DNA of 63,963 nucleotides, counting the filler, from Sluysia triapertura (taxonomy: Eukaryota): assembly GCA_046118255.1 (NCBI GenBank). It is 5 parts of 5 records of this genome, joined end to end, with 100 filler letters (N's around TTAATTAATTAA, not from the genome) between each part and the next. Parts side by side here need not be neighbours in the genome. Positions count along the whole stretch, not along the records: positions 37,024 to 52,849 come from JBJNIA010217474.1; 4 more parts are not named here. One strand, written 5' to 3'. The translations under genes were made by a program, and so were the position numbers. Position 1 is the stretch's first letter, and every line of letters begins with the position of its first letter. The notes below the pieces were generated by a model that was given only the letters and a program-made list of their open reading frames with translations, was not told where the DNA came from and made no database searches. This document shows, piece after piece, positions 10,081 through 57,470 of the stretch.

Positions 10081-10176
10081 GTTAGACTTCGTAAAATGGA
10101 CTGACCGGGGATCGAACCCGAGACCATCGCTGCGCAGTTCGATTGCTCTACCACTGAGCTATCAGCACCGTCTAAC
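10081..10176 (-). mobile_element. tRNA-derived repeat (SINE or pseudo-tRNA), copy 1
   Basis: Reverse strand has A-box TAGCTCAGTGGTAGAGC, B-box GGTTCGATCC, acceptor-like GCTGA/TCAGT and a TTTT terminator, flanked by the inverted repeat GTTAGAC/GTCTAAC. The anticodon stem pairs poorly. Confidence 0.75.
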
Positions 10177-11099: not shown

Positions 11100-11174
11100 G
11101 TTAGACTTCGTAAAATGGACTGACCGGGGATCGAACCCGGGACCATCGTCTGCGCAGTCCGAATGCTCTACCAC
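11100..11174 (-). mobile_element. tRNA-derived repeat, copy 2 (cut by gap)
   Basis: Near-identical to 10081-10153. Confidence 0.75.
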
Positions 11175-11274
11175 NNNNNNNNNNNNNNNNNNNNNNNNNN
11201 NNNNNNNNNNNNNNNNNNTTAATTAATTAANNNNNNNNNNNNNNNNNNNNNNNNNNNNNNNNNNNNNNNNNNNN

Positions 11275-16730: not shown

Positions 16731-16747
16731 ACAGAATAAAAAATATT

Positions 16748-17600: not shown

Positions 17601-17625
17601 ACCCTTCAACATAAATCAAATCCAA

Positions 17626-21088: not shown

Positions 21089-23451
21089 TAAATCAAATTA
21101 AATCAAAAATTAAAATATTATAATACATAAATGAAATCAATCAAAAAATAATAAATATATAAAAAATATATAAGAACGTTTTGTTTAATATGTGTTGCTC
21201 AATTTTAATACCTGATGGTTAAATAAATGTAATTAAAACGGATAAAAGGATATTGAAAAATTAAAACTTTGAATTTAAATTATTTAAACAAACATGTACT
21301 TAAGTAAATGTAAAAGTTGTTTAAATAAATGTAGAAAATAAATTATAACAATTTATTTTCTGTAAATTCTTGGATGTTTTAAATTTATTACGTGTACAGT
21401 GTAATAATGAAATAAATTTTTAGATTTTTGATACATTTAAAGTACGTTTTCTTAAAATTATATTTTGAATTGGTAAATAAAAAAAGTTTGTTGAAAATGA
21501 TTTTGAAGAGTAATTACTTTTCAATTTCTTATTTTGGCAAGCATTGAAAAAGTTTTTGTTAAATCTGGCAAAACCAGCTAAATTTTGATGATGACATAGA
21601 CAATGGCATAATTATGTAAATAATTTTTAATATCAAACTACATTATTTGAGTTTCAAAGTAAATTAATTCTTTTCGTTATTATTTATTGAAGTTAAAATA
21701 AATCATAATTTAAACTATAGTAAATAATAGATTGTAGGTAACATAATTTAGATTAATCACCTAACAAATTCATTTTGATTTCTAAATTTATTTTATCACT
21801 TAAACGCTTAAGATTAATTTTTGCTAAGATTAATAATTAAAAATTATAATATTAATAGTGTAAATTTAATAAAATATAACAAGTACAAATTTCAAAAGTA
21901 CAAGAAAACCAACAAAAAAGTGAAAATTTTGAGGTCATTCGTGCTTCCATTCGTAATGTTACGTATTCCGTCTTGTGAACAATTATAAATTTAGATGGGT
22001 CCGATTTGTAACGTGCAGTAGACGTAGCTACAGATTTGACTGAAAAGAAAAGTACTCTTAACGATATGGCGGTCTTTCCTTAAGTTAATACACCTTACGT
22101 TTATCAATAAACAGCGTGAAAGCTCTTATCAAAAATATATTCGTAATTTTAATTTTAACTGAAAACTCTTTTCAAATATAATATTTGTAATTTTAATTTT
22201 AGCGACAAAAAACCAAAAATCGGATTAACTAAATTTGTTGAATACAAAAGTTTTATAAAATGTTTAACAAATAACACGATTAAGATATTAATAATAATAT
22301 AGTACTTACTTTTAAAGAATGAACTTCTTTATTTTTATAATAATTTTAAAGGTAAGTTAATCCAGGTGTAATACGTGGATTGAAAAATTAGTAGTATTTT
22401 GACGCTACTTATCGAAGCGATTAACCTTAACAAATATTATCTTACTTTATCTTTACAATAAAAATCGGACTTTTGTTACGATTTCTCGAACAATACCAGT
22501 TGTCGAACAATCAATTTATAAATCGAATTTCCTTCAATTTCACGAATAAAACCAAATGATTTAGTACAACCAAAAGTCAGATATCTAAAATTTCAAATTA
22601 CTCCAGTGTATAACTGTTGGGATTGCCCGATTGTGGATTGAGAGACGAGTAAAAGACATATAGAATTACAAATGAAGGAAAAATTGATGAGAAGTAGCAG
22701 ATGAAGTGTTGTAAACACTGTTGAAATAAGAATCATGAAAGAGAAAACATTTTTAATATTTTTAACAGTTAAAGAATATCTTGGGATTCCAAAGACCTAT
22801 ATAAGGGTTTGAGACCTTATGGAAGCTTGAGATGGACTTGNNNNNNNNNNNNNNNNNNNNNNNNNNNNNNNNNNNNNNNNNNNNTTAATTAATTAANNNN
22901 NNNNNNNNNNNNNNNNNNNNNNNNNNNNNNNNNNNNNNNNTATTGTCATGACAATGCTCTACAACCTTTTCCGAGACTATCTATGGTAGCATCGAAAGGT
23001 TTACTAACAAACAAAGGTTGATGAGTTATCTGATCTTCTTCTATCAAAAATAATGAATAGAGATCTGCTTTGAAGAATTTTGAAAACAAGTGTTGTTATA
23101 TGCAAATCATCATATGAATCTTTTATTAAATCTTGCACAAATTCGCTCACATCTAAATTATTTCTACAGACACTTCTATATCTTTTAGTATATCTTGTTG
23201 ACGATGATGGATTATTAAATTTAGGATTATGTGGCAAGAAAAATGTAACGAAACCACGATTAGCCAAAATAATAGGTTTAAAACATAACATAGCGAATTC
23301 GTGAATACTTATTTTTCGAGCTGGTGTATTTGATCTAAATACAGATGGTGGTCTTTAGTCGTAAAAACGCTAATATTTGAACTTCTACTCTGCTTAAGTT
23401 GTATATCTAATGTAAACTTTATATTTTATAACTTATATATGTGCGTCGAGT

Positions 23452-23470: not shown

Positions 23471-24189
23471 GTGTTGGATTTATAAATAATTCAAATTTAA
23501 TAATTATTCTTTGTGAAACTTAACTTAATTCTGAATACTCTTGTATAAAAATTTAAATGTTTGATTTCGGTTTAAACTAATTATTATTTGTTATTAAATT
23601 TTGAATTTATACCAACTCTATTAAATCTCATTTTAAATTGATATAAAACATTATAGTCTTAATAATTATTTTAATTTTATTTTAAATAATTTAATTTAAA
23701 CTTGAAAAATAAATGAATGTTATAAAGTTTAAAAATTTGAAAGGATTTAAAAGATTTAAGGAGTGAATATCACGTTACATTAGGATTGAAATTATAATAG
23801 TATCTTAACAAATAAACACAAAAATAATCATTTGCTTAAGGTGTAAGGAGTAACAACAAACAAAGTATTGATTGATCGCCAGTGACGGTTTTCGTCATTG
23901 TTGTTCAAAATCTGTACTGAATAAATATTAGGATTTTAAGTTTTTATTTTTTATATAATTTTGTCTTTAAAATTAGTTGTGTAAATGTATTAGAATTATA
24001 TCATTAACATTAAACTATTATTATCTTATTTATTCTTTTTAATGTTTTTCAATCAATAATTTAGACAATGAGTTATGTACATTGCGTAATCTGTCAGAAG
24101 TCTTTTCACAAAACTATTTCCTACATACATAAAATACACTTATAATTATCTACTTTTAATTAGAACTTATAAATTGTCTGCTTTGTAGG

Positions 24190-26776
24190 TTTGGGGTTGA
24201 ATTACATTGTTTATTATAATCATTAGTGGCCTCAAGGTAATTTAGGGCTTTTTCGGTTTTTGAAATGGATTATGCTATACAATTTAATATAATTTAATAC
24301 TTCTGAAGAATAAAAATTACCATGATTAAAATTGCTTATATCTACGAAAAAGACTAAACTAACAAATGAAGATTTATTTTTACAAACACTGAAATCAAAA
24401 ATATTGAATTGAATTACTGCGTTCGGATACATTTGATCTTCTCAGGTTGTGTGATTTTTTAACACAAAATTGTCTATAAGATTATTGAATTTAGTATCTT
24501 GATTCGAAGTGTTGTAGTTTTCCTTGATTGCTAAATCGTGCACATACTTGATATTTTGGATGTCCGACATTAAGTCATTTAATTGCTCTGCATTACTGTA
24601 AAAAATATTAATTGAAGTTTCACTATAGCGTATTTGAGTAATGGTATGGAAATATCTGCATGATACTCCAAATTTGCTACATTGGCCAAGACTATTTGAT
24701 TCATATTGACACTGTCCTGTTTGGAATAATTCGTGTTTTTGTTGACTTGAAAAAACGCAGATCATAGACGAAGTTGAAAGAATTCGATCGTTTATAACAT
24801 TACTTGGTATCAAATAATCTATTGAAATTTCGCTAAGAGATCCTTTGAAGACAGATGAATCAGGATCTAATGGAATTGCAATAACGGTTTTGTATCTGTC
24901 ATCAGGAACATCATCATTGCATCCACCATCTTCATTGAGATAATTAGGAATATTTGTTGGAATGGGGATCAAACAACCTCTAACTACTAATTGAGAAATC
25001 CATTCTAATTTGTCAATTTCTTTAGTTATTAAATCTAATTCAACCGCATAAATACGATGTGTCCCAAGCATTTTAATGTCATTGTCACTTTTGTAAACTG
25101 ATTTAAGTATTGTGTACAATGAATAACACTTGAAGAAAAACATAGACTAGCGTTATTTAGGATTTTATTTAAGATCCAAAAAATGTACGATATCTGATTG
25201 ACCTAATAAATCTAAGGCGAACTTTCGGCATTAGTCTATCAATTTTCATAATATTAATTCTCTTCAATAACCTTAATGGTAAACGAAATTCTCCTGGCTC
25301 TGAACTCCTGATGATGAGTATCGATTGTTATGCCTATGCGACATTGAAGTTAACTCTAAAAAACTAAGTAGTGAATTCATTACATCCAGTTCAATTTGAA
25401 TTGAAGATTCACATACCTTAAGAATAGAATAAGGGTCATGTAGAGCATAAGACAAGATTGATAATCAAAGACAGGATAATTTGAAAATTTTATTTTGTTG
25501 TGATACGATAAATGATTGTAAGAAATACTTGATTCTATTTTATTTTTCAGCTGGTTATATGGTTCGATTGGTTGATGTCTCAACATCTCTTCTTGATTTG
25601 TAGTTCCAATTGCGTTTCTAATTTTTGTAATTTTTTATTGTAAAAATAATGATAAAATTTTTATTCTGTCACTTATGATTAAAATTGTCTAATCAGATTG
25701 TTAGTTACAAACATTTGATAATTTACTTTTTGTGTATGCATCTTTTTTTAGCTTGATTGGTTATTTGTAATTTGTATTTACAATGATTGGATGTATAATC
25801 AAAAATAAAACGTTGACATAACTACTCTGTGAATGTATGTAATAAAGTAATTGAACTGTACTGTCTGATTGGACGTTCAATTAGAATGATAAAAATAAAA
25901 CATTGAAACAAGTTTGATTGGGCGTCCAATCAAACCATAAAACTGGATATAACTAATGTGTGGTTTAGTTAATGCCTGTATGCAAAATGATTATGATCAA
26001 TACCTGTCACCATTAAGTTTGTACAATTGATTAAATGGTAATTAAAAAGATGGTGACAGGTGAATGTGTTTTGTTAATGAAAAATAATCACTATGTCGTG
26101 GTATAAAAATAATGATAGTGGAATTAATAATTAAAATAATTAACAAAATTCGTAATTATAATAAAATAGTTAATTATATACACTAATGATAATAATAATA
26201 CTGAATAAACTAAAATAATGATAATAATAATATTAAAATTAAATTTAAAACTAAAACGCATAAATTTCACATAACTTTCTGTTCTTTCTCTTCATTCTGA
26301 ACTTACTTAACAAATGAATTTAGAAAAGTGAAATTTATTAACTTAAAAATACTAAAAAACGATTAAGAGGTGTAAATACTTGAGTGTTAATGAATTAAGA
26401 ACTTGAAATATTTTGAGTTAATTTTTACTAGCATGAGCTGTAACTTGATATTCTAATGTTATGAAAGTGTCGAATAAAATATTCTTGATGAATCCTTAAT
26501 GTAATTTGCTGATTTTGAATATCATTGTGTTTTGTATGTTATGGGGTTGTACATTTGAAATGATTTGAAAAATGGAAGTTGATTTTGGTGGATCTAAGAA
26601 GAATAAGATATAAAAATGGTTGTGAATTTAGAAATGTGAGTTGTAGATCTTGGGGTAAATGTTATGTTGACGTAGGGTTGTGTAAAAAATGGTTTTAATG
26701 AATTTATGAAAATGTAAGTTATATATAAAATAAAATTTTTAATAAAATTTGTTAAGGTAATAGATTGGCCACCACA
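24190..26776 (-). mobile_element. Giant solo LTR, TGTGGTG family, copy 1 (2587 bp) with cargo ORF
   Basis: Starts TGTGGTGGCCAATC on the reverse strand, with GTAGG direct repeats at 24185-24189 and 26777-26781. The far end is degenerate (TTT instead of TGT on +). The first kb resembles the copies at 31360, 38421, 48371 and 56688. Confidence 0.8.
24232..25610 (-). pseudogene. Cargo reading frame in LTR copy 1: disrupted protein with a CCCH-like zinc finger; longest intact piece 24442-25143
   Basis: CQYESNSLGQCSKFGVSCRYFH = C-x9-C-x6-C-x3-H. Upstream pieces are joined by frameshifts and stops; no introns are apparent. Confidence 0.5.
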
Positions 26777-27207
26777 GTAGGATCCAATTAAGTGGAATTC
26801 AAGTATTTCGCAAAGGTATATTCCTACATATTTGAAAAATAACCTGAAACCGTACTTAATCAAAACATCGAAATACAGGAGGCGGAAATAACACCACCAG
26901 AATAACTTGTATAAAATAAAGAAACACGCAATAGATATACCGCCTACAAATTTCCCTCTTGGCCTGACGCGGTCTCTGAAACATAATCGCTGCCGAAGGC
27001 AGATAAGAAGTATTTATATGGAGGCAGGGCAATATAAATGGATGAAAGATTAAGGTTAAATCCCTTCCCAAAGAAGAAAAACAATTAATTTTACTTTTAT
27101 TTTCTTTTATTTCCTTAAAATACATAAGTCATTTGATTGAATGTATATAATAAAAAAGTAAATGTTAAAAAATAAAAATATAAACTAACGATTATTTTAC
27201 ATTTTTA

Positions 27208-40129: not shown

Positions 40130-42413
40130 TTACCCTGTTTGTCTACTTTTATTTGTTTTTATATTAGAAAAAAAAATTATTTTGTCTTGGCATTTTAGTT
40201 ATAATTTTGCCTTTATGCGAATATGTAGTAGTGAAGTTTTTTTTACTTTTTTTTAATTTTTATTATTATTCCATCATTATAGTGAATTCTTTGACTTTTT
40301 TTGATTTTTTATTATTGTTTCATTATTATCCAAGGTAATTTCTTTCCTTTTTTACTGAATCTTTTTACTAAAAAATTCTAATTTTCTGTTAGGATACTTT
40401 GAAAATGAGTAGCGACGATGAATCGGATGTGGAATATGAAAATATATTTTGTATAACTGAAAATGGATCTGATGAAAGCGGAAATTCTTGTAATGAAGAA
40501 AGTGACAGTGATGATGAAAATTGGCAATTACTTAGTAATGAAGTATTTGCTGAGGCTCCCGACAGGTTTCCGTTTACTGCCAATCCAGGGTCAACTGTTT
40601 TGAAGGAAGAATTAGATAGTTTTGAATATTTTAAATTATTTTTTGACGATTTTATTTGCAACCTGCTAATTGTTGAAACCAATAGGTATGCTCAACAACA
40701 GCCAACAACTTCTGAACGCTCCGATTGGCAACCAATTACAAAAGAAGAAATGTATATTTATTTGGCAATCATAATTTTACAAGGTATAATCAAAAAACCT
40801 GTAGAAGAAATGTACTGGTCGAAGAGGGAAATTATAAATACTCCATTTTTTTACAAAAATTATGTCGTATAAACGATATAAGGACATAAAAAAACATTTT
40901 CATATTGTCGATAATGAATCATTTGATCCAGAAAATCATCCATGTCCAAAATTATATAAAATATGGACATTTTTTGAAAACATCAATAAAAAGTTTTCTA
41001 AATTCTATGTTCCTGATAGAGATGTATCCATCGACGAAAGTCTTATGCTGTACAAAGGCAGACTTTCGTGGAAACAGTACATTCCTACTAAAAGATCAAG
41101 GTTTGGGGTTAAATTTTATAATTTATGTGAATCTAGTTCTGGATATGTATATTCCAGTATCATTTATACAGGCAAGGGTACTTTCCTCAATAGCCAATAC
41201 TCAGATCTGCCTATAACTTCTCAAATAGTTTTAACCCTATTACAACCTCTTCTCAATCAAGGGTATTGTCTAACCACCGATAATTTTTACACGAGTCCTC
41301 AGTTAGCAGATATTTTAATAAAACAAAAAACAGACACGTATGGCACCCTAAAACAAAATAGAAAAGGCTTACCAGATCAACTAAAAAGTAAAAAATTGAA
41401 AAAAGGTGAAACCGTAAGTGTTAGACAAGGAAAAGTGATGGTGCTCAAGTGGAAAGATAAAAAAGACATAACATTATTATCTACAATACATAATAATGAA
41501 TTAAAAAATACAAATAAAGTAGACAAAGAAGGAAACCCGGTAAAAAAACCTATCCTTGTGATGGATTATAACAATACAATGGGAGGAGTAGATCTAATGG
41601 ATCAGCGAATACATGATTATGCTATAGCTAGAAGTAGAGGCAAGAAGTACTACAGAAAAATTTTTCTCAATTGCTGGATACTTGCATTTTAAATTCTTTT
41701 ATATTGTATAAAAAAACGGTGGAGAAAGAGAAAATTTCGAATTTCGAATGTGTCTTGTAGAACGGTTAGTAGAAAATTTTCATACAAGTGAACCTTCAAA
41801 AAAAGGGGAAGACCTAGTGCAACTCCAAGTCCTCTAAGATTAACAGAAAGACATTTTCCAAGTATTGTTTCACCAGCCGAAAAAAAGACAAATGTTTCTC
41901 GTAGGTGTGTAGTGTGCAGTAAAAATAAAAAAAGGAAAGAATCTCGTTATGAGTGTAAAAACTGTAATGTCGGATTATGTATTGTCCCGTGCTTCGAAAT
42001 TTTTCACACAAAACTGAATTTTTAGTTTCAATTATTGAACAAATAAAAATTAATTATATTTATTTATTTTATTACTTATCATCCCACCTTAAATTTCTCG
42101 TTTTTGTATTTTTTTAGTTTTGGTCACCATTTTGACATAAATATAATCGAAAATGAAGCAAAAATTTAAAATTTCTGGCCAAAATATAAAAAGTTTCAAA
42201 ACTGATAAATATTTATAATGTACTCTTTTAATTTGATACCCAACACAAAATTTAAAAAAATACTTTTTTAGTCAAAATTGACCCTAATTTAAAAATTTTT
42301 AAGAAAAAATATTTTTTTATAATTTAAACTAAAACAAACCATTTTCACTAATAAAAAAAATAGCCAGTTTTCGACCATACACTTGAAAAATAAATAAACA
42401 GGTAAGGGGTTAA
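40130..42413 (+). mobile_element. piggyBac (PGBD4-like) transposon; transposase 40405-42025 split by frameshifts
   Basis: Acidic N-terminus, SIDESL, KQYIPTKRSRFGVK, TTDNFY, YNNTMGGVDLMDQ, and a C-terminal RCVVC...YECKNCNVGLC..PCF..FH. The right end is AAACAGGTAAGGGG-TTAA; the left end is only partly recognisable (TTACCCTGTTT). Confidence 0.92.
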
Positions 42414-43149
42414 GCCTGTAATTTACATTCCATAAAATTTTAATAGATTATTGTATAATTAACTTTTATTTGTAATCAAATTCATCAAAATATTTAGCAA
42501 ATTATGTGTTAGGGCTTATTTTTTTACAGAATAGACACTGGCGTTTCAATTAGTTAATCAGTGAGTAATCCCACTTTTATTTCCTTTACTAGAGACAAGT
42601 AGAACTAACATCAATTTTAAAGTCTATTATAAGTTGAAGCAACCTAATAAATACAACAAAATGACGCACGTACTGAAAATTAAAGTTTAAATTTACATAT
42701 CTGTAACAAAAAGTGAATAACACTTATAACACGATAAATAATTTTCATTAAAGTAATTTATATTTAAGTAATAAATTTGCTATTACATTATATTTTATTA
42801 TTAATTATTCTCATTTATTATTACTGTGCTATATAATTACTATTCATTTATTAAATTTTTTGGGCACAGATATTACCAAATGCTTTAGTAATGTTACTGT
42901 TCTATTATTTTTTATCAGTATTAATACAATAAAAATAATAAAATTATTATAAAAATAGAAGAGTATTATTAAATTATACAAAATTTAATGTAAACCAATA
43001 TTTAATTTTACACGTTTTTATACTTACTTATATTAATAAGTAATTTAGTACGTTTTTTAATATAAAAATGAAATAAATAAAAATCTGAATATCCTGTTTA
43101 TATTTATGTAATATATAAATTGTCATATAATACGGTAAGTTTATTTAGA

Positions 43150-44117
43150 ATGCATAAACTTCTATGTGCTTTAACAATAGTTACTGTCTTTGCAGATATT
43201 ATTGCAATTCAGTTCGAGAAATGCTTGAAAGATCATGAAAATTCTTATAACAATATAATGCCCGGAGATGGTGGATTTCTAATTTTATTACGGGATTTAA
43301 CTGGTAAAATGGTTGATAGGTTTGTACCTGGTGAAAAGTATAGGCTGATTATAAAGAATCAAAAATATGGAGTAGGGTTTCATGATTATTCATTGTATTC
43401 AACTTTGCCTGTGACAGATTTTAAGAAAAAAGGTTTGGGTCACGAAAATGTTGGTATGTTTATGATCACAGAAAAATATGGCCATCTAAATAAAAAGTGT
43501 CCTAATAAAATATTTAGTACTGGATTAAATTTGAGGCGAATTGTAAGAGTAATATGGGAAGCTCCTAAATATCCTATTTCATGTATAACATTTTATGGTC
43601 AAATTATTATGAATAGAAAAATGATTTTTGAAAATGAAGGAATGCTTATGAAAAAGTTGTGCCCGACAAAAGTATTAGATTTAAAAATATTAATGCAAAT
43701 GAAATTGAAAGATGAAAATATGACTATGACTAAACCAAAACCATTACCACCTATGATTAAAGAGTGTTGTGCATGCGGAGAAGCTAGTTATCGAGTTACA
43801 TTTCAAGGATTATGGTCAAAATCAACCCATCCTAAAGATTGGCCCAAGTACAAAAGTATGTTACATTGGACAAATCTTATTGGAGCTACCCATGATGGCG
43901 AATATTTTATTTATTACAATGGAGGATATGCAAGTACTGGAGTTAGAAGTATTTGTTCATATGGTGACAATACAATGTTGAAGAAGACTTTCGCAACTAT
44001 AAAAGTAAAAAAACATCTGAAAAGTTTTTTCTCTTCTCGTGGAATTTGGAATGAAGATGAATTGTTGGATAACAGAACAGGCTATATAGCAGTTAACAGA
44101 ACTTATCCGTTGTTTAG
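43150..44117 (+). CDS. SPON1: F-spondin (spondin-1)-like, first coding exon: signal peptide, Reeler domain and start of Spondin_N
   Basis: MHKLLCALTIVTVFA signal, GDGGF...FVPGEKY...WEAP...CITF (Reeler), and CCACGEASYRVTFQGLWSKSTHPKDWP...HWTNLIGATH (Spondin_N). Donor AG|GTTAGT at 44118. Downstream exons were not identified. Confidence 0.9.
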
Positions 44118-44355
44118 GTTAGTTGAAATTTCTTACTCCAATGTTAAACATAAATAGCAAAACTCTATTTGAAAGAAAAGGTTTGATTTTCTTTAATTAT
44201 TTATAATTTTCATTACATTACAAGGATTTAATAATTTATTTTTTAATAATGAATCAATGTTTCTTCTTTATCGTGAATCCGTGAAACTAGATTATAAATG
44301 AAAAAATTTATAAAATAAAATAAATTTGTAATATTATAAAATATATCAAAATATA

Positions 44356-44477
44356 TTAACTCATAACTGGCCGCTAAAAATTCTTAATCGACTGTTTGAT
44401 GGCAACACAAACAAAGTTATTCTGGATTTCGGACAAAAAATGACGTATTACTAAGTCAGCAGCCAGTAATGAGTTAA
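44356..44477 (+). mobile_element. TTAA-flanked MITE, copy A
   Basis: TTAA-CTCATAACTGGC...GCCAGTAATGAG-TTAA, with an inverted related copy at 49554-49648. Confidence 0.75.
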
Positions 44478-44641
44478 ATCAAAACATAATTTTAAATATT
44501 TTGAAATTAAAATAATTTTGATGAAAATGAAAATTAAGTTTTAAATATTTTTTACAGTTACATGCAAATTCAATAATGCTTTCTTTAAAAAATTATAATT
44601 ATTAAATTGTTACATCTTTTGTTACATTTAATAAAACAGCA

Positions 44642-45952
44642 TGTGATGAAAAACCCGTAACTTAAAATTTTATTAGTTTTATGAGTAGTGTTTTTATAAA
44701 TGGAAGGTATAATGTTTGGTTGCTTAAAAAATTTTTGAATTTTGTAATCATGAGAAAGTTTTTATTTGTTTTGGAAGATGAAACTAATGTTATATGGTTT
44801 GTTGATTGTTTGATGACGTTATTCTGTGTGTGAATAATTGTCGTTTTGTTGAGTTTTGTAGCAAATTATCATTAAAGGATGAGTTGGTGAGGTGATTTTG
44901 AGTTTGGTATTTGTGAGGCGATTTATTATTTGTTTTGGGTGATAAAAATTGTATTGTATTATGTTTTAATTGTTCCGAATTGCTAATGTGTAAGTGTGTG
45001 TGTCATTGTTTTTATTGTTTGGAATATGTTGTGAAGATTTGACATTATTACGTGAATTGGTGGCATGGTTTTGTGTTTTATGAAGTTGCTTATTATTTGT
45101 TTTGAATTGCAGAGATTGTGTTTCATTATCCTTTGATTGTTTAAAATTATTATTATGTGCATTTGTATTGCTGCTCTTGCTCTCTCCAAGATTTAGTGAA
45201 GGTTTGGTATTATTGTATGAAATGTCTTGTACTTGATGTTTGTTATATATTTTGAATGGTAAAGGTTGTAATACTTTATTTGTTGGTTGTATGATAGTTT
45301 TGTTATGTGGACTGATATTGCTATTTTTGTTGATACATGCATTTTGAGACGGTTTGATGGTGTTAGCTAAGTTTGTAATGTTTTTCTGTGTTTTACTTAG
45401 CTTTGTTTTATTCGATTTATGTTTGATGTATGTTGAATTACATGGAGATATACTGTGGAGTACATTCTTCTGTAGATGGAAGGTGACATGTTTTTTGCTT
45501 AGATTTTTGTTCTGATCTATGTTTATATTCAGAGGTGTATGGTTATTTTGAGGTTTTGTGAATGTATTAATTATGATTTGTTGAAGTTTGTTTTATCAGT
45601 GAAATTATTAGATGAAAGTGTTGGTTGATGTTGTGGTATTGTTGTATTTGAGAAGTCTCTTATGTAGGAAATACTTTTTGAGTATAGTTTTGATGTCACT
45701 TTTAAACATATTTATATTGTCGTATATGATTTTATTTATATTGACGTACTTGTTCAAAGAAATATACATATTATATACAGATTTATTATTATTATAATTA
45801 ATATTATAATTATTTGTATATTTTTTTACAATGTTATATTGAAAAAGATTTATGTTTTTACATTTTAAGATAAAATCACGAATAAAAATTATAAAACGTG
45901 GTTTGGTGGCATATTCGAAAAATAACAGGATTTGTTTGAACTCCTGAGACCA
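44642..45952 (-). mobile_element. Internal region of an LTR retrotransposon: PBS plus decayed N/K/T/Q-rich gag-like sequence
   Basis: PBS TGGTCTCAGGAGT (45952-45940, tRNA-Leu-like TGGTGTCAGGAGT). The C/A-skewed low-complexity sequence resembles 53000-53650 and ends ...TTCATCACA. Confidence 0.6.
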
Positions 45953-45956
45953 TTTT

Positions 45957-48371
45957 TGTATTGGTTTAATTGAAATATTTTTATTATGAAAGATAAAATA
46001 TGTTACATAAAAGTCATTTATCGAAAGGGATGTATTTGTTATTTCAAAACTCTTTGTTAATATATAGAATTTAATGAAAATTTTAACTAATTTTAATTCT
46101 TTACACAAAATTGAAATCAAAAAGACATGGAAAAAACTAAGTGTATTTACTGAAACTAAATTAAAATTTGTTGATGACCAAAATGTTATTTCTCGGATAT
46201 ACCAGATGTTAAGTTCACTAAATAAATAATAAAATATTGTTAAACTCAATTTAGACAAATAGTAATTAAAATTGACTTTTATATGATATGATCGTTCTAA
46301 TTGGTATACGTTAATGTAGTTCACAAACGTGCGACTCGAACTTGCTTGGGCTTGCCTGTAAATGTCTTATAGTCAGAGAGTTTACATAACGACAATGATC
46401 CAGTTCATTTGAAACGATGAGGTCATTGACCAAAATGTTATCTTTAATATTTTGCTGGAATAATCATCAGTAAATATTACTTGTATATGATGAACACCAT
46501 TAGTGAAAACAATGCTTACAGTATTATTTTTGGAATTAACTTTATCTTTAGCATGGTTCGACTTCGCACGACATGACACAGAATATCAAATTCCTTTTCA
46601 ACTTCTTCATAACATGTTGTTAGATGAAGTTGTATTTTTCTGAATATCATTTTTTCTCTCTGCCTTCTTTCACAACTTAATTTCGATGATAAAACACCTA
46701 AAATTCTTTGCGTCTCTTCTTCTAATTCATAATGTATTATTTTATTAATCTTCACAATTATCACTTGTTGTATATGATAAAAAAACTTCTTTAATTTGAA
46801 TCGTATGATAGAGCATCACCAAAATGCGACACGGAGTTGCTGGTATAACGTAAATATCTAAAATACTAATGTTTATATCATTAGCTGCATGCCTTAATCT
46901 CACATTTAATCCTTTGTTCATTCTTATTTACTGACAGTACTTTCGTATTGTTAATTCTAAAGTAGGAATCAAAATCTTTACACATATTGTTGAATGAATG
47001 GGATACCATAAGGAAAAATCTCTTTGTTGTCGTTTTTAGATAAACCAATCTCATGTTTACATTGAAGTAATAGTGGTATAACATGTTGTTGAGCTTGAAC
47101 ATATTTAGAATATTTTAATTTAGATACGTTATCTAGAATTGTAGACAATTTGACTGCCGTTGTTATCATTATAGGACTAAATTGAATTTCACTTTAGAAA
47201 TTGTAAGGTTATAAATTGAAACTGTTCTTTTTATCAATGTTAACTGTTACCTGTTACTATTATTTGTTGATATTCTGATTGTTGTAAACAAAATTATATT
47301 GTATTAAAATCCAATAATGTTTTTCGAAGTATCAATCTCTTGTAATTCTAATTTTTCACTTTTCTGATTATTTTTAACGTAATGAAATCTTCAATTTTAA
47401 GAACACTTTTATTTATTTTTATATATTCTGATTGAGTTTAATTAATGAATTCAGTTGTGTTTGTTTTTGTTTTCAACTCGTCTACTGTATTTTGCGTTTT
47501 TTACTTGGCTATTATTGTGTGCTTTTTTTGTTACTCTATTAAGTGTGTAATCAACTATTGGACATCCAATCAGGAGGATAATAATATTTAGGTATGGAGA
47601 AGTGATTGGATATCCAATTGCAGTGAGCTCGAAATGTTTTGATTAATAACTATCAGTAATGACAGATGGTATGAAGAAATTAGAACTGATAGTGGTGGAT
47701 ACAAAAATGAATTTGAACAATGATAATAATATAAAAAATGCAAAATGTAAAATTGAAATACATAAATCCTTTTCGTAATCATAAAAACACGAATTTTCTA
47801 TTATTTTTTATCCCTTCTTGACATAAATATAATTGAAATCATCTTACGGTTTTTAAAATTTAAACGAAAAATATAATTTTGAAGTTTTGGATGGTATACA
47901 AGCTTGAATGCTGAAAGATTGTAAGATTAAAAAATTTTGGATTGATTTAAGATGTAAATTTGATAGTTTGAGATGTACTTGTGATTTTAATGTCACTAGA
48001 TAATGCGTAAAAATATTATAAATAAACTTTAAATTGTAAATTGATGGTTTTAAATGTAATTGTAATTCTGATATTATGAATAACGGATTGAAATGTTTTA
48101 AGTAAAATTTAATGTGCGTTAATGATCTGAAAGTGAATGAAATTTTAATGTTGTAAAGTATGAAATGGAAATGTTTTGAGAAGTTGTGATAAGGTTTTAT
48201 TGAAAGTAAAGGAGACAAAATATGAAAAGATTTAGATGTAAAAGTATTTAAAATGATACGAAATTTTATACTTGAAATGTTTGATGGTATAAAGTGTTTT
48301 AAAATGTTGTGAAGAATGATTTTGCTGCCTGTTGTGTTACAAAATTTCAAATTGTAGGGTTGGTCACCACA
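45957..48371 (-). mobile_element. Giant 5' LTR, TGTGGTG family, copy 4 (2415 bp) with disrupted unknown cargo (about 46300-47400)
   Basis: TGTGGTGACCAACC...TTTCAATTAAACCAATACA, then AAAA and the PBS. It shares blocks such as ATGTCAAGAAG...AAATTCGTGT...ATTTATGTATTT with copies 2 and 3. Confidence 0.75.
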
Positions 48372-48746
48372 TGAAAAAAGCTGTCTAATGTTTAAGATTA
48401 TGTGGTATAAATTGAGAATTTTAATAATTTTGTTACAAGCTCATTTTGCAATTAAATCAGATGTAATGAGTTGAACCACCACAGTTTGATGTTGCTTTCT
48501 CGTCATAAATCTCAATCGAAATGGATCCATTATAACAATTGCAAACGTTCATTACAGTGATTGGATAAGAATTAATAACCAAAGACATATCCCAATGAGT
48601 AATATTCATCCAAAGAAGCTGATTGTAAGTGTTTTACGATCGTAGCAGAAATAGAGCATTCCCTCTAGTAGCACGAGTTCGTTCTTGTGCTACAAGAAAA
48701 TCGCGTAAACCATCATACAAAACCGCTGCATAGTTTCATTCTAGAA

Positions 48747-49405
48747 CAGGGATGGCGAACCTTTTTTGATGTTCGTGCCACAAAGTCAAAAAAATTCTTT
48801 TTTAAATAGGTAACGTGCCACAATAAAATTTCATTCGAAATGTTAGTGTGGTGAAACTAAACGTAAGTATAATTAAATAAACAAATAAAAGCAATTCTTC
48901 TTTAAACAATTATTTATTAATCAATGTTTTACAAAAGACAAAATGCTAGAAACACAATTCACGTTAAAAATAATTGTTTTAATGTGATTTTTGTTGCTGT
49001 ACACAGATGATAAAGATTTAATATCTGGTTCACATTTAGTTAGTTTCAACACTACGCATACACAGCTCGACGGTTTGCTAAAATGACTAATGCAGTCTGT
49101 CGTCTGATTCGAGCTCTGCGACGGCAACATGTAATAACATTAAAAGACAAAACTGGAATCGCAAAAAATTTTATCTAATGCGCATCTTTATATACTTCGA
49201 GAGAATTCATGCGATATTTTAATAATAAAATGTACAGTTTGAAGGATCTAGTTATCATACTAAAATAGGTATTCAGTACTGTAAATTTATATCATAAATT
49301 ATAAATTAAGTGTAGATTAATAATTTCTAATTCATTTCTATCAAAAAAAGATAACTAATAAAAAATAATTTTGTTTTTGTGCGTGCCATTGGTTCGCCAT
49401 CCCTG
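48747..49405 (-). mobile_element. Non-autonomous hAT (Charlie/SPIN-like) element
   Basis: Perfect 15-bp TIR CAGGGATGGCGAACC/GGTTCGCCATCCCTG, 8-bp TSD TTCTAGAA/TTGTAGAA, and transposase tail CVVLKLTKCEPDIKSLS. Confidence 0.9.
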
Positions 49406-49553
49406 TTGTAGAATGTTAATGAATATCGGAAATTCCTCCCGTAACACTTTATAAATGTAGCCATTTTGATAATGATTTTTTACCAAAAAACAACCTTACA
49501 TTTTACATTTTTCTTACTCAAATTCTTTTTTATTGCATGCACACAATTTTCAT

Positions 49554-49648
49554 TTAACTCATTACTGTTTTTGTTTGTGTTGCCATCAAACAGTCGATTC
49601 ATTTTAAGCGGCTCGATTAAGAATTTTTAGCTGCCATTTATGAGTTAA
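49554..49648 (-). mobile_element. TTAA-flanked MITE, copy B
   Basis: Reverse-complement match to 44356-44477 (TTTGTGTTGCCATCAAACAGTCGATT; GATTAAGAATTTTTAGC). Confidence 0.75.
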
Positions 49649-51290
49649 TTAATATTAATAATTACATTTTTTAACAGGTATGAAACCTTTCATTTCTGTT
49701 GGATCAAAAAGATCTATTCGAATAATAAAACCTGATTTGGATTATAAAAATCAACGAAATAATACAACAATTTCAAGTACCTATATAAATGCTGATTAAT
49801 GAAATTAATTACAGACTTAAAATTGATTTATAATTTTTATTCTACTGACACTATAAAGTAGATTAAAATTGGATTTTTTAATTTTTTGAAATAAAATTAA
49901 TACTTTTTGTTTTATTTTTAATATTAACGGTAGCAAATATTTAAATTATGTAAGCGTTTTATAAAATGGGTGTGCTTTTGAGAATGGGTTTTATGAAATT
50001 TTATTTTATACTTTCATAAGGAGTCTAATATTTTTGTTACATAAGAAGTAATTGATAATGTATTTCATTCTCATAGATATACTCACGAAAAGGTTCTTTC
50101 GTTGAAACGTAAGTGTAAATCCCAAAAGGATCATTTGAATCTAATTTAAATTTTGTATCTTAGAAAATCTAACCTTAAACCTCATTATATAATTTATTGT
50201 TTAGTAATTTAATTATTTTGAATTTCTTTAAAGTTTCGATTAAGATTTATTTCAATCTGAAAGCCAACTAGTGTCATTTGGAAGAGTTTATTTCGATTTT
50301 CATCCCAGACTTAAATTGGATCGAACGTAAGATCATTCGTTCATTAAATCTTAAAATAAATTTACTTTTTATATCATGTAAACGCATTATGTTCAAAACT
50401 ACCTTTAATTGAATTTAGATCTAACCTAACTGAATAATTAACAACCTTATCACTTTTACAACGTTTTATCTATTAACACAAATGTAGATACAACTTTATT
50501 AGACGAAACTATAACAATAAATGAAACCATCTCGATGTATGATCATTTAGTTCGAGTTAACGATACATCCTCTTTTGATATTAAGCACGAAGACAAGATT
50601 GATTTAATTTGATTAGTATACAAACATGCATCGTCCTTTTATTACTGTTATTTTGATAGCATTATCTTCAAAAATTTTAATTACATAATGACTAAAGACT
50701 CATTTGCTTGGTGTATCAAAATTGTAAATAAAATATTGTTTAATTTATATGAAATTTTCGTTAATAAATGTATAACGGACATCGATGAGAACATTGTAAA
50801 TTTGTTACATGTGTTCATAATGATTGCAGCAATCTATCTATATGGGAATTCATTAATGTATTTATAGATAAAGTTGTATCGAAATGGTATCTCAATGAGT
50901 TTTCACCTTCACTTGTACGACTATTCCATTTAGAATTTACTGCAGCAATCCAGTCATCAATGTGTAATATTTAACCCCTTACGGTCCTATTTTATTTCCA
51001 TTGAATCCTCTAGACATCCTATATAATTGCAGCTGCTGGTGTTTATGTCCTATAATAAACTTAACTGCAAAATAAAGATTAACAGAATCCGCTTGTAATA
51101 TACGACTAGCGATGGCGTATCTACAAGTAACGAAAATAAATATAATTGTTTAATTTACAAAAGGTTAGTTTCGAAACTTCCTGAGAGTCTATAATGCATT
51201 TTACTGTCTAAAAATTTAATCAAGCAATGTATAGATAAACAATACTTTATTAAGTAAACTTATGTTAGGTTCAACGACTATTCCTAATTC

Positions 51291-51294
<4 letters not shown>

Positions 51295-51332
<38 letters not shown>
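51295..51332. repeat. (TA)n microsatellite
   Basis: Perfect TA run. Confidence 0.95.
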
Positions 51333-51335
<3 letters not shown>

Positions 51336-52999
51336 AATAGTTCTTTTGAAACTTAAAAATCTTAATCTTACCTGCAAAATATCTAAGGAGTCTATCCGCC
51401 TAATACATACGATTTATACTACTCTTAGAGACGCATTATTAGGATTTTTATAACTAAACTTAGGAAGTTTTTTGCTTATACCTTATAATCTAACTAACAA
51501 TCAGTTTAATGATTAATCAATTAATTTAATTTCAAATTTTACAAATTTCACAACCCTTTTATTAAGGTGTTGTTGGAAAACAGATATTTTACTTGATAAA
51601 TTTCACAACTCTTTTGCTAAGGTATTGTTTAGAAATCAAACTTAATATTTTATTTGAAGGAAATTAAGTTAATCTTATTCGATATATTAAAATACAGCAA
51701 AAGAATATACAAAGACTAACAAATGTAAAAGGTACCAATATAATAGAGATAATGATTTTGATAACTCAATTATCAAATTGATTATGTTAAGATTTTAGGT
51801 ATAAATTATCTAACCCTCTTTAAGGTGTTTGTACAAAAATATTATAGGATTCTAAGTGTATTTTAATATTCCCAGAAATTATGGTGAATAAATAAAAACT
51901 TAACATGTAAAACATTACGTAATAGACATGGATTTTCTTTCTTGATTTTTGGATTTCGGTTTTCTACTAACTCAGTTTCTCATTTTCTTCTTGTGTGTCA
52001 AACTAAAAAATTTCGATCTATTAATATTAAACTTACGTTAGTCGCCATTTTCTTAAAAATAATTTAATTTATTCTTTATTTAAGCTAAATAATTTCTTTT
52101 TAACCTGCAAATTAATAATTTAAAACAAAAATTTCTACTCAATAAATTTTTAAATATTTTGACATTTAATATTTTTATTTTTAATGTTATTATTTTTTAA
52201 TATTTATATTTTTAATATTTATAATAATAATAATAATTTAAAGTTTATACAAATATTTATACAATACCAACATGTTATACAATAAAACATACATAAAGAT
52301 AATTTCTGACATATATATATAATAATCAAAGAAATGAATAATGAGAATAAAACGATTTAAAATAAGTGAGTTCACCAACGTATTGGACTTACTAACTTAA
52401 TGGCCAACCGTTGGATTTGTAATCAATGGACAAAATTCAATTTAACTTAATTCAATAGATTCAATATTTTATAAGGAGGTTTTTTGAAGATTTTAGGTAA
52501 TTTAAGTAATTTAAAAAAAATAATATAATTCAGTGATTTTAATAAGTTTCGATAAAACGAACCTGCTATAATGATTTTAAAAAGATTCTTAAATAGAACC
52601 TATTTATTGAGATTTGATTTTAATTAGATTCTTTCGTAGAACCTCTATTTAATCTAGATATTTTAGTAAATTCAAAAAACAATTTCGTTACAAATTCTAC
52701 AGATTATTTATTCTAAACTTACAAAAATTTCACAAATATTCGAATAAATGATAATCAATATAATTAATCAATATATAATATTAATAGCCAATTTAATTGG
52801 ATTATTTTATAAATAATCTTATGCAACAGATTTTAGTAATTATTTTAATNNNNNNNNNNNNNNNNNNNNNNNNNNNNNNNNNNNNNNNNNNNNTTAATTA
52901 ATTAANNNNNNNNNNNNNNNNNNNNNNNNNNNNNNNNNNNNNNNNNNNNAAAATATATAGAGATTCAGTTTTGTTTGATTTAAGTTTTTATAAAGAAGG

Positions 53000-55900
53000 G
53001 TTAATAATTTTATTGAAAAACACAACAGCACAAATCTGTAAAGAAGGTCCCTAAGTTAAACGTGCCATCATTGCCAATATAAATCAAAGGATTATCAAAC
53101 CCAATTCTAAAAAACTTAATACATTTAACAACACATTCAAACAACCTTCCAGAAGTATAGTTAACAAACACAACAGTCAATATCAAAGACAACAAAATGT
53201 CTCAAACCAACAGACCAACAAAAGTAACCCTAAACAAATTAAGGATGTATCGAAACAATCACCTAAAAACACAAATGTTAAAGTCAATATAAAAGACCAG
53301 AAGACTAATAAATCCAACTTTAAACAAGAATGAAAACAACAAAATCAGTGAACAAAATCAAAAGCGTACCGATATCCAAAACAAACAGCCGAAAATTTAC
53401 TCTAATAATCAGATTCAGACAATTCAAATTAAAAACCCAAATAAAACAGAACTTATTATTCCAAAAGAAGTCACAAATCAGAACAATCATATCAAAACAA
53501 TAACACTCCAGTCAATTGTAAAGCAAAACAAATCTTACCTGGTACAATAATTGACTCTACTTCGGCATTCGAGCGACATGTACATACTGAGGTTAACACA
53601 GCCAATTCAAGAACCCGCAACAATCGGATAATACATATAAAAGTAAAATGTATAGCGTGCAATCTAAACGCGCCTTAAAATCAAAAACTTCGACCCTATT
53701 AATATATTACAGAGGTTAACCATACATCCTCAGACATGGTTTAATTATCAGGCGCAACCTTTACGTCCCCATTTAAGTTTTAACGACTACGATATTTCAC
53801 AGGGAGCAATAATTTCAATAAATCATCAACTGCATGGCGGTACTGACGACGAACCTGACATTCTTACACGTACTGAGCAAGATCAAGTAACAAATATCAG
53901 TACTTCGTCGCCGTCACAATTCTTCCTAGATGATACTGGTTCTCCAAGTACATGGTTTTTGGTTGTTGAAGCCATAGGAGCCGATAATAGGAGCCGATAA
54001 TAGGAGCCGAATTTCTTACTCATTACAAACTCCTAGTCGATTGCCACTATAAAACTTTAACAGAGTCCTTCGAACAACTCAATCATATTAAAATTTAACT
54101 TGAGTATCTCAACAGCAATAATATTACTCAATATTTACAACAAATTCACCTAATCTATTACTTGAACAATTCAACCCAGAATATGTTCCTAGATCAGAAC
54201 ATTTTATAAAAGCAATACCTACACCACCGTTCAGACAACGACGACGAGAAAATACGTTCTCATTCAGAGACAGAATTTCTTGAAATGGAAGGACAAGGAA
54301 TAGTGCGACGCTCTTCTTCTTCACGGGCCGCACCTCTGCAAATAGTCAAAATAAAAAGATGGAAGAAAGAAAGATGGAACAATAAGGATATGTGGTGACT
54401 ACAGAATGCTCAATAAAGTCACAGTTCCAGGCGAATATCCTATGCCACTAATAACAGACATTTTTCACAGATTTATAGGTTACATAATCTTCTCTTCATT
54501 AGACCTGGCCAAGGCTTACCATCAAATCCCAGTACATACTGAGGATATACCAAAACAACCGTAATAACTCCTTTCGGTCTAAGAAATGCAGCATAAACTT
54601 TCCAGCGTCACATCGATCAATTTCTTCAAGGCTTAATTTTCACTACAGCCTATATCGATGACATCATAATTGCTTCCAGAGATATCAAACACATCTGGAA
54701 CAAGAATTCCAAAGACTTTCGGACAATAATCTTATAATCAAAATTAACAAATGTCAATTTTTCAAAAATAAGATCATCTTTCTAGGTAACAACATTTCTG
54801 TTGACGGTACAGAACAGAACCACAGGAAACCCGTACAACAGCAATAAGAAACTTCCACAACCTAAAACAGTCACATAAATGAGAAGTTTCTTAGGCCTAG
54901 TCAAAAAATTCCGACGCTTTATCCCGAAACTGTCAGAAATTATTGCACCATTAACAGTTCTATAATCGGAAAAGAAAAATCAACAAATCAATTGGAATAC
55001 AAAATCTCTGGACTCCTTTGAACAAACAAAACAAGCAATTATAAAAATGGAAAATCTTAACAATCGATGCTTCAAATATAGCAATAGGTGCGGTACCAAC
55101 ACAAAATCAACAAGAAACAACCAGGCCCATCGAATTTTATTCCAACGTACTTTCTGCACAACAAACCAAATATTCGGCATTCGACCATGAATTGCTTGCA
55201 ATTTATCTTTCCGTAAAACACTTCATGTATTTATTATCCCAACGCAATTCACACTTAGAACAGACCACAAACTGTTGTTACACATTTTCACAATGAAAAA
55301 CCCACTCCAACAACGGCAAATCAGTTACTTGTCCAAATTCAACTTCAATATAGAATTTATCCCAGGACAAGCAAATGTGGTTGCAGATGCATTATCACGT
55401 GTAGGTTTAAATAGAATTGAATATCAGTCAATATTCACTGTCGAAGAATTACAAAACAATCCACCATTTTTCTAGAAATTTCCAAATTTTCAATAAAACC
55501 ATCATTACAAAATGGAATTTTCTACGACTACCAATTATCAGGTGCTTCTCGACCAGTGCTAGGACAACAGCTCCAAATCAAAGCTTTTGAATATATCCGC
55601 AATATGACATATGCGGAGCTAAGGCCACATATGAATTACTACACTCAAAAGTAGTATGACATCAAACACTGGTGTAAAGCCTGTTTGACTTGTCAATCTG
55701 TGAAAATTCACAAAAACATAAGCCACAAACGCTTCACTTGCCCACAGGCCAACTCTTCGATACAATACACATGGGCATAGTCGGTCCACTACCACAATCC
55801 TGTGGTTACACTTACATCTTAACTATACTTGACCGACAAAGCAGATGGCCTGAAGCGTTTCCAATTAGATCAATAACAACGGACACCATATCCAGAATTC

Positions 55901-56687
55901 TAATAACAAACTGGATTTCACGCTTTCGTGTACCCAAGAGAATTATCACAGATCGAGGAGCTCAATTCGAGTCTAGCCTTTTCAATAATCTACTTAAACA
56001 ACTAGGCAGTGCTAGACTACGAACAACTTCATACCATCCACAGTCTAATGGTATGATATAGATATTCCGTAGAACTCTCAAAAACTCCTTGATTGCGCTA
56101 TCAATATACCATAATGGGGTTGATACGTTACCTTTTTTAATCTTATTAGGCTGGCGTAATATCCCTCATTCTTCAAGAGGATATTCTCCAGCTCAAATCG
56201 TATTAGGAACCGATACTAGATTACCCTTTGAATTGTTCGAACATGATAATCCGTCAGAAAAAATATATTCACCTCTTTTGCAGCAATATTTCAACGAATT
56301 GAACAAATCAACACGTCACAACGAGAATCCTCACATTTATATACCTAAAAACATTTCAGACGGCAAATTTTTGTGGCTCAAATCAGAGAATCCAGAATAT
56401 CTTCAACCAAGATAAACCGATCCCTATAAATTCATCCAGTTAAATTCAAATAACAACACAGCTTCATCGACATTAACGGAAAATCAAAAACAGATAACTG
56501 ATGTAAGCTTAAACCAGCTGCAATTCTAGTTGAAGAAGATTCACAAACTATACCAATAAAGAAATCAGTAACCTTCAATAACACGACTACTCTACTAAAT
56601 GAACAGGGTTTACACTAAAATCAATTAAACCTATCACATTCATCTTAATTTTAAATGTCTGTCGTTCCGCGTCTTCGAGGGGGCTGA
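53000..56687 (+). mobile_element. Decayed Ty3/Gypsy retrotransposon internal region (gag-like, protease, RT, RNase H, integrase, PPT)
   Basis: FLDDTGS / IGAxFLTHYKLLVD (protease); RICGDYRMLN, FSSLDLAKAYHQIP, PFGLRNA, YIDDIIIAS (RT); TIDAS, TDHKLL (RNase H); IVGPLP, DRQSRWPEAFP, TDRGAQFES, YHPQSNG (integrase); PPT GAGGGGGCTGA at 56677-56687. Confidence 0.95.
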
Positions 56688-56942
56688 TATGGTGACCGAC
56701 CTATTACTTTTGGCAAATTTTATTTAAAAATTTTCTTTTGAACATTACAAAACCACATAAACTTTCAAAATATACAATATACATTTTAAAATCCATTAAA
56801 ACATTTTATACATAGTTCCATGTCAATATAATCAAAATCATATATTTCAAAATCACACTCACCCTTAATATATACGACTCACATTTTTAAATTCACAGTT
56901 CAATACAAACATAACTAAAATCATATCCTTTTCAACACCACA
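56688..56942 (+). repeat. 3' LTR start of the Gypsy element (TGTGGTG family; short or truncated)
   Basis: Directly after the PPT: TATGGTGACCGACCTATTACTTTTGGCAAATTTTATT..., collinear with the first about 250 bp of 31360+. Ends ...TCAACACCACA. Confidence 0.8.
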
Positions 56943-57470
56943 ACAGTCAACTGAATAGTTAAATATCTTTCGTCAAATAAATTGCAAGGTGTTTCCTTTT
57001 AAATGAATCGTGAGGTAATCTCCGTCAAATAATTTTGTTTCAAATCTCCCATCACTTGAATACTAAGGAGTCACTAAAACGAAATGAAAATTGTGTGAAA
57101 TACAAATGAAATACTTGTTGAAGTGACCTTAATGTAGAATTTAAATTATTTGATTTAAACAAGGTATTTATCTTTAATAATGTAATTAATTTAATTGTAA
57201 CAAAAATAACTATATTAATTTGGCATCAATATTAAATAAATCCTATTTTGAAAATTAATCATTAATTTCATAAATTCTAAATATAAATCAGTTAAATTAT
57301 TGATTAGAAATTATTGTAGAATTGCACGATATTTGGAAAAAATATCATTTTCCACATAAGACCAACCTAATCTTGTAATGTTATTGTTGATAAATGATAA
57401 TAAATGTAACTAAATAATAACAAAAAATTAGCACATCAAAAAGTTTTTCTTGTAAAAATATAATTACACT

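Follow-up and report, generated by a model that had tools for sequence, protein, structure and literature searches.

Coding cargo inside putative long terminal repeats of a Ty3/Gypsy-type family in Sluysia triapertura

Is a multi-kilobase repeat with coding sequence inside it a long terminal repeat (LTR) loaded with cargo, or a DNA transposon of the Ginger type? The question is raised by a stretch of 63,963 nucleotides from the eukaryote Sluysia triapertura (GCA_046118255.1; hereafter the window), composed of five parts of five records separated by filler, in which five related repeat copies were recognised. At its centre is copy 4 (45957..48371, minus strand, 2415 bp), which lies in the part derived from JBJNIA010217474.1 (positions 37,024 to 52,849) and whose cargo was placed inside a 5' LTR by an earlier note, with a primer-binding site (PBS) of tRNA-Leu type as key evidence. 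Here, copy 4 is considered most likely to be the 2.4-kb 5' LTR of a Ty3/Gypsy element that is decayed and truncated. A degenerate PBS of Leu type and about 1.2 kb of sequence resembling a first open reading frame (ORF1) would follow it. For the broader proposal, in which the cargo of copy 4 lies within a 5' LTR and the cargos of the family derive from co-packaged mRNAs via template switching, our estimate is a probability of about 70%. The LTR call is based on copy 2, a bounded insertion, and on copy 5, which is located behind a Gypsy pol; the PBS-like site of copy 4 agrees with it.

The window is AT-rich (26% GC), animal-type DNA with a high density of mobile elements. Its four N-run gaps (11175-11274, 22841-22940, 36924-37023 and 52850-52949) each surround a 12-nt stop-codon linker, and one of them cuts off what lay behind copy 1, another the 5' portion of the Gypsy element that precedes copy 5. 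No intact LTR element, with two near-identical LTRs around gag-pol, was found in the 64 kb. Scores were compared with resamples, numbering 30, 150, 400 or 3000 depending on the test.

A repeat family with LTR anatomy and varied cargo

The five related starts are found at 26776 (-), 31360 (+), 38421 (+), 48371 (-) and 56688 (+), corresponding to copies 1 to 5. Over the first 300 nt of copies 1-4, five of the six pairs scored above all 150 composition-matched resamples, the exception being copy 1 versus copy 4; the head of copy 4 is homologous to those of copies 2 and 3, at a score reached by none of the 150 resamples. With an identity of only about 60-73% in local alignments, the copies represent separate subfamilies and not LTR pairs. 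Copies 1-4 exhibit TG...CA termini without long inverted repeats, copy 5 starting with TA, and no terminal direct or inverted repeat rose above shuffled controls in any of the four long copies. Three further ideas on the family were set aside: a sixth copy at 36106 (-) was dropped (p 0.75), 3' ends as inverted copies of the family start ranked at the 30th-64th percentile, and a short LTR of about 255 bp is out, since no long copy repeats its head at the far end and the likeness between copies 5 and 2 reaches about 280 nt.

Copy 2 (31360..34228, plus strand, 2869 bp) has the anatomy of a solo LTR with cargo, with TG...CA ends and TTGAA on both sides. Its host is a Tc1 element (30332-34460), interrupted in its right arm; the left arm offers the empty site, with a single TTGAA. 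Because TTGAA flanks the copy twice and occurs once at the empty site, the whole of copy 2 represents a single insertion that duplicated 5 bp of its target, or 6 bp if the terminal A is counted. The Tc1-type element itself, with long arms (207 of 233 positions identical) and a broken transposase, sets an upper bound on the age of this insertion. Copy 3 (38421..42560, plus strand) is another solo LTR, flanked by a GTGAG duplication, and its end is the sole CA+GTGAG within 8 kb (0.3 expected); it carries a piggyBac transposase remnant (40393-42412, plus strand) whose right end with TTAA is present and whose left end was not found. Copy 1 (23472..26776, minus strand, 3305 bp) ends in TCCAACA, fitting the general LTR end motif YNYAACA as quoted from PMC3601003, and is followed after 1 nt by a second PBS-like site starting with TGG (23470), which has 4 mismatches in 12 positions to the motif of Steamer elements (see below). 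No duplication flanks copies 1 and 4, and it is in these two that CA is followed, 1 or 4 nt further, by TGG. About 400 bp from the start of copy 1, and divergent from it, is an intact 435-codon ORF (27184-28491, plus strand) with host-like codon use (z 3.9) and no Pfam match.

The connection with Gypsy is provided by element 5 (53990..56580, plus strand), a broken pol in the order protease, reverse transcriptase, RNase H and integrase, cut on its 5' side by the gap at 52850-52949. Its integrase has 692 Gypsy-type homologs. Behind it come a G-tract of 7 nt and then copy 5, the start of a 3' LTR of this family (tract and copy, 56677..56960, plus strand), which is recognisable over about 270-280 nt; its alignment with copy 2 spans 172 nt at 73% identity (E 8e-24). 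The region 57082-57243 weakly matches the end of copy 1 (p ≤0.009; narrowly the best of about 550 non-self windows), a match from which the LTR of copy 5 may be short and cargo-free.

Copies 1-4 have in common a block, about 470-1050 nt from their starts, which comprises three colinear motifs and CCAAT/ATTGG sites and is significantly similar in four of six pairs. In copy 4 (47555..47828, minus strand), it consists of the three colinear motifs, an ATT-rich stretch and two ATTGG/CCAAT pairs, and is pairwise significant against copies 3 and 2, not against copy 1. Judged from its motifs, the block appears promoter-like. It is preceded in copy 4 by a C-rich, G-poor head with a U3-like character (47850..48371, minus strand), of which 47856-48371 is stop-free for 172 codons (p 0.0015); in the other copies, the corresponding first frame stays open for 17-73 codons.

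Coding cargos are found behind the common block in all four long copies, each coding on the sense strand only, and no protein match was detected between cargo segments of any pair of copies. The copy 2 cargo (32660..33625, plus strand) is an intronless, broken fragment of a CCA-adding enzyme (TRNT1) with 599 homologs at E ≤0.001; among the 120 listed, identity ranges from 31 to 39%, and the best named matches are spread over many phyla. Residues 114-403 of a named homolog of 446 aa align colinearly with it, the alignment containing one frameshift and no intron; animal TRNT1 genes have introns in the corresponding stretch. A profile of 34 named CCA-adding enzymes is matched at positions 110-400 of 447, the catalytic DxD being absent from the fragment and from the sequence upstream. 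The fragment thus displays the traits of an LTR-mediated retrocopy, namely partial, intronless, sense, without poly(A) and flanked by element sequence. A second, different coding-like stretch follows it (33626-33830, plus strand), so that at least two mRNAs may have contributed to a chimeric copy 2 cargo. In copy 1, the cargo is an intact ORF of 234 codons (25146-24442, minus strand) with host-like codon use (z 3.8) and a weak CCCH zinc finger (Pfam E 8.7e-7, under the curated cut-off; Atlas leads below 0.9 only); none of 71 candidates at E 1 was a homolog, and a single-sequence fold was not used (mean pLDDT 33). Copy 3 harbours coiled-coil frames (about 39330-40167, plus strand). The cargo of copy 4 (46385..47170, minus strand) is a decayed sense-strand coding sequence, recognised by 5.5 frame breaks versus 12.7 +/- 2.0 in 400 resamples and 14.5 for the antisense, a signature that is also seen in the CCA piece and the copy 3 cargo. 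No homolog of it was found, one frame having been searched against 1.84 billion representatives and the others against Pfam and PDB; weak DARPin/ankyrin matches were obtained (best E 0.012). Copies 1, 2 and 4 contain no A-run of at least 8 nt that would resemble a poly(A).

The proposed end of copy 4 and the sequence behind it

On the minus strand, copy 4 runs from TGTGGTGACC at 48371 to CCAATACA at 45957, followed by AAAA (45956-45953) and TGGTCTCAGGAGT (45952-45940). Its exact right end is placed from the terminal CA and the PBS-like site 4 nt beyond it (45940..45952), which would have a priming role. This site agrees in 10 of 12 positions with the 12-nt Leu PBS of Steamer elements reported in PMC8905726; the sole tRNA-like gene of the window has no readable anticodon. 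Copy 4 shows neither a target-site duplication, its far end being lost, nor a purine tract in front, and downstream matches to CA+TTTCA or TTTTCA occur at chance frequency only. Within the 1.7-kb zone where the end was expected from the sister copies, a PBS-like site with CA at most 5 nt upstream appeared in 13 of 3000 resamples (p 0.004), a value that becomes about ten-fold weaker once other primer types are allowed, because a single tRNA motif was tested. The zone contains five CA-N(0-5)-TGG sites, one of which matches a published PBS.

These results support the earlier note in part. The motif is where it had been described, and no PBS follows the first 255 bp or so: copy 4 has no other TG-anchored site with at most two mismatches to the Leu motif. 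The proposed likeness between the ends of copies 4 and 3 proved marginal (p 0.06 for the last 30 nt and 0.045 for the last 100 nt, with one of 18 end comparisons below 0.05), and the 9-mer common to both ends occurs seven times in the window. The site also loses its place as key evidence. With three sites against 1.2 expected in the window and its position inside an open frame of 252 codons, it is a predicted site that is supportive of LTR identity to a moderate degree. The conclusion that copy 4 is an LTR with cargo inside, and not a Ginger-type transposon, is upheld mainly by copy 2, copy 5 and the missing terminal inverted repeats (TIRs), not by the PBS.

The 252-codon frame (45608..46366, minus strand; first Met at 45769) spans both the proposed LTR end and the PBS-like site, and has no Pfam, PDB or usable Atlas match. 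After a cluster of four stops, a 208-codon frame goes on in phase with it; frames of at least 200 codons are expected 0.025 times per resampled window. As coding-like sequence runs through the proposed end, the PBS-like site could be codons. Copy 2, whose end is proven, has a similar layout, with an open frame that exits the LTR end and a terminal CA in the same codon phase as in copy 4; the tail of copy 1 is non-coding and not open. The frame cuts both ways, erasing any visible boundary at 45957 yet recurring in copy 2. In yeast Ty1, ORFs start within the 5' LTR.

Beyond the site, the region 44770..45939 (minus strand) is A+C-rich and contains a truncated, decayed ORF rich in N, K, T, Q and S, which is ORF1-like in composition; neither a pol nor a second LTR was found after it. 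At A+C ≥0.62, only three merged regions emerged among 1210 windows, namely this stretch, another in front of pol 5 and a portion of pol 5 itself; similar N/K/Q/S-rich frames are encoded behind copy 4 and in front of pol 5. The strong shift in A+C begins about 250 nt past the PBS-like site. DNA alignment of the post-PBS region gave p 0.22 with the pre-pol region of element 5 and p 0.51 with the region behind copy 1, and codon usage lent no support to the tail or post-PBS frames, in a test of low power (z 0.4 for the true integrase frame). What had been called gag-like thus consists of low-complexity, N/K/T/Q/S-rich open frames without homology, and its link to Gypsy internal regions extends to base and residue composition, not to alignment.

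The surroundings of copy 4 are complex. Short look-alikes of the family start are located at 44642 (+), inverted, at the far end of its internal part, and at 48483 (-), 112 bp upstream. A miniature element (48746-49406) lies 375 bp upstream; its inverted ends are 15 bp long, its 8-bp duplication is near-perfect and, from its terminal motif, it presumably belongs to the hAT superfamily. An imperfect inverted repeat (44344-44535 / 49545-49660; blocks 88-100% identical over 21-48 nt) encloses this miniature element together with copy 4 and the internal part behind it. The repeat could represent a host DNA transposon, or have led to the truncation of the copy 4 element.

Affinities with known elements

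Based on the descriptions in PMC3286476, a Leu PBS combined with a 5-bp duplication is a known Gypsy arrangement in the Mag lineage, and Steamer is described in the same way (PMC8905726, PMC10663159). The family described here resembles these elements in its putative Leu-type PBS directly behind the proposed 5' LTR, its 5-bp duplication and its TG...CA ends. The trait pair of the Mag clade (Leu or Ser PBS, mostly 5-bp duplication) is not unique to it. Unlike the present family, Mag-lineage LTRs are given as about 120-300 bp, no cargo is mentioned in the descriptions available, and the pol found here has relatives of CsRn1 type. Of the five matches listed for pol 5 over 1100 aa, two carry the CHCC motif and DUF7041, marks of the CsRn1 clade, a leaning that comes from best matches. 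The likeness to CsRn1 is limited to these pol and integrase matches to proteins with DUF7041 and the CHCC Gag motif. According to the portions of PMC2582038 available, elements of this clade (PwRn1, AgCR) have a Trp PBS, a conserved Gag and LTRs about 330-380 bp long, with a 4-bp duplication in PwRn1. Neither this LTR length nor this Gag was seen here: no conserved Gag with a CHCC motif turned up upstream of pol 5 or downstream of copies 1 and 4, where the regions are truncated, and no tRNA-Trp PBS was recognised, the copy 4 site departing from the PMC2582038 motif after its fourth base.

Other systems share single aspects with this family. In the case of sag of MMTV, located in U3 (PMC4667437), a protein-coding frame also lies inside a normally non-coding LTR; that is one fixed retroviral gene, unlike the several unrelated and mostly broken pieces found here, of which one or more come from the host. 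In Burro and Ogre, compared by description only (PMC6431247), Gypsy LTRs likewise reach several kilobases and additional coding content is in part host-like, but the extra domains or ORFs are internal; identity with Burro was considered and not supported. LTR-mediated retroposition in animals, as described for Drosophila (Tan et al. 2016, PMC5131818), also leaves partial, sense, intronless and sometimes chimeric mRNA pieces in LTR-element sequence, behind an LTR promoter. In the 15 retrocopies described there, the piece took the place of some internal ORF sequence between the LTR pair, in contrast to the present cargos, which lie within the LTR itself and persist in solo LTRs. With Ginger elements the family has a TGT-type 5' end in common. 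Ginger1 and Ginger2 are described with 40-270-bp TIRs and 4-bp duplications in animals, protist TDD elements having 5 bp (PMC2836005), and the present family differs by its lack of such TIRs, its 5-bp duplications and its linkage to reverse transcriptase and RNase H.

Capture of host sequence and competing explanations

We propose that cellular mRNA would be co-packaged with element RNA and that, during minus-strand synthesis, reverse transcriptase would jump to the mRNA and back to the element RNA, most simply at the obligatory first strand transfer. The captured piece would land inside the LTR in sense orientation, without introns or poly(A), and the next replication cycle would copy it into both LTRs; later LTR-LTR recombination would leave solo LTRs made of promoter plus cargo, such as copies 2 and 3. 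A mis-jump at this transfer, if it took place, would explain the fixed position, the sense orientation in four of four copies, and the absence of introns and poly(A). Template switching onto mRNA is a published route for LTR-mediated retrocopies, with internal captures in the cases described (PMC5131818; PMC9674220); both the route and its timing are what we infer for the present family.

Several observations weigh against this proposal. No element in the window joins a pol with a cargo-bearing LTR, copy 5 lacks the common block and matches copy 4 weakly (4 of 150 resamples did as well), and a host gene was identified for one of the four cargos only. Leave-one-out profiles of the block recovered two of four copies, missing copy 4 with the profile of copies 1-3 and copy 1 with that of copies 2-4, and the 3' ends of copies 1-4 do not align with each other. 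Counting both strands of the window, three PBS-like sites (TGG start, at most two mismatches) were detected versus a mean of 1.2 in 30 resampled windows. Coding-like sequence is continuous from about 47170 to 44770, with no visible boundary at the proposed end of copy 4, and searches for Gag homology behind copies 4 and 1 found none, those for the copy 4 stretch covering Pfam, Atlas, PDB and Gypsy proteins. The putative CsRn1-type relatives of pol 5 remain in conflict with the Mag-like pattern of PBS and duplication, as the Trp PBS of CsRn1 and the 4-bp duplication of PwRn1, in the published descriptions seen, fit neither the Leu-like site nor the 5-bp duplications.

In one alternative, the LTR family would be real and the site at 45952 chance coding sequence, copy 4 being longer or truncated with its true end elsewhere. 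In frame, the site reads W-S-Q-E, or offers an AAAATGG start context, within the 252-codon ORF; it is one of five CA-N(0-5)-TGG sites in its zone, the copy has no duplication and an unaligned 3' end, and A+C shifts some 250 nt further on. We regard this as unlikely, as a published PBS was matched by only that one of the five sites, with p 0.004 for the zone, CA followed by TGG recurs in copy 1, copy 2 also has an in-phase frame off its proven end, and 2415 bp is within the length range of the sister copies. Far less probable still is a non-autonomous Ginger-type transposon extending from 44642 to 48371, with a short imperfect inverted repeat, the cargo and PBS-like site being internal. The position 44642 (+) does resemble an inverted family start, as the best of 287 candidates in its zone and 16th of 7132 TG positions, but the likeness covers only about 33 nt, two non-family positions score higher and the chance of such a match in the zone is estimated at about 0.1. 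Moreover, the ends at 44642 and 48371 have no duplication, copies 1-3 have no TIR and copy 5 lies behind reverse transcriptase and RNase H; copies 2 and 5 largely refute this reading already, and it is because no copy has terminal inverted repeats that Ginger is rejected.

Other alternatives concern the origin of the cargos. They might be the element's own accessory genes, selected and expressed from the LTR like MMTV sag or the Burro domains, the capture route being secondary. Compatible with the anatomy, this explanation is the more serious one, even if it is doubtful: the copy 1 cargo is intact, with 234 codons and host-like codon use (z 3.8), every cargo is in sense behind one promoter-like block, and a CCA-adding enzyme would act on the very tRNA end that primes these elements. 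However, the cargos are mutually unrelated, the CCA piece has no catalytic DxD, and those of copies 2, 3 and 4 are broken, though perhaps by decay after insertion. It is rather improbable that ordinary solo LTRs received their cargos once integrated, either as retrocopies made by LINEs or through insertion at the DNA level. Nested insertions are abundant, as illustrated by piggyBac in copy 3 and copy 2 in Tc1, and each cargo is single in the window, but all four copies have their cargo in the same position and in sense (1 in 16 for orientation alone), copies 1, 2 and 4 have no poly(A) run, and the sequence on the far side of the cargos is not common to the copies, unlike what an interrupted common LTR would leave. 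Capture through template switching into the LTR thus remains the reading that we favour.

The rest of the window documents other genes and repeats. Host sequences include an F-spondin-like gene with a long single-exon stretch (43081-44157, plus strand) and a fragment of glycosyltransferase family 92 (2093-2527, minus strand). Tandem repeats, each about 22 nt long, form an array at 16733-17601 that runs across an assembly gap. The tRNA-like sequence (10097-10168, minus strand) has a broken anticodon arm and a partial repeat at 11097-11174, and is possibly the head of a SINE. At 35839-36015 (-/+), a weak tblastn match to the reverse transcriptase region of Gypsy proteins (E 0.03-0.6) is perhaps another decayed retroelement.

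Both LTR-mediated gene capture, internal in the animal cases consulted, and a gene within an LTR, as in MMTV sag, are already known, and capture inside the LTR with a different cargo per copy is a variation on this theme. In the literature searched, which covered few subscription papers and not Repbase, no lineage was encountered whose LTRs are described with varied host cargo, a negative that argues only weakly for novelty. The PBS-like site of copy 4 adds modest support to the picture of capture in the LTR. Each cycle duplicates a cargo that lies in an LTR, the element can retain its pol, and the cargo outlives the recombination that removes the rest; solo LTRs would therefore become ready-made cassettes of promoter plus gene. 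A bolder and tentative extension is that the LTR of this lineage is a standing gene trap, in which mRNA is repeatedly captured at one position behind a promoter and copied into both LTRs, the cargo forming, in some subfamilies, the 5' part of a frame that passes through the LTR end and PBS into ORF1. If so, each subfamily would make a different host-derived N-terminal extension of the protein in Gag position, and would seed solo cassettes of promoter and gene. Four different cargos in four long copies within 64 kb suggest a high rate of capture in this genome, which would make the capture step of reverse transcription directly testable from the junctions.

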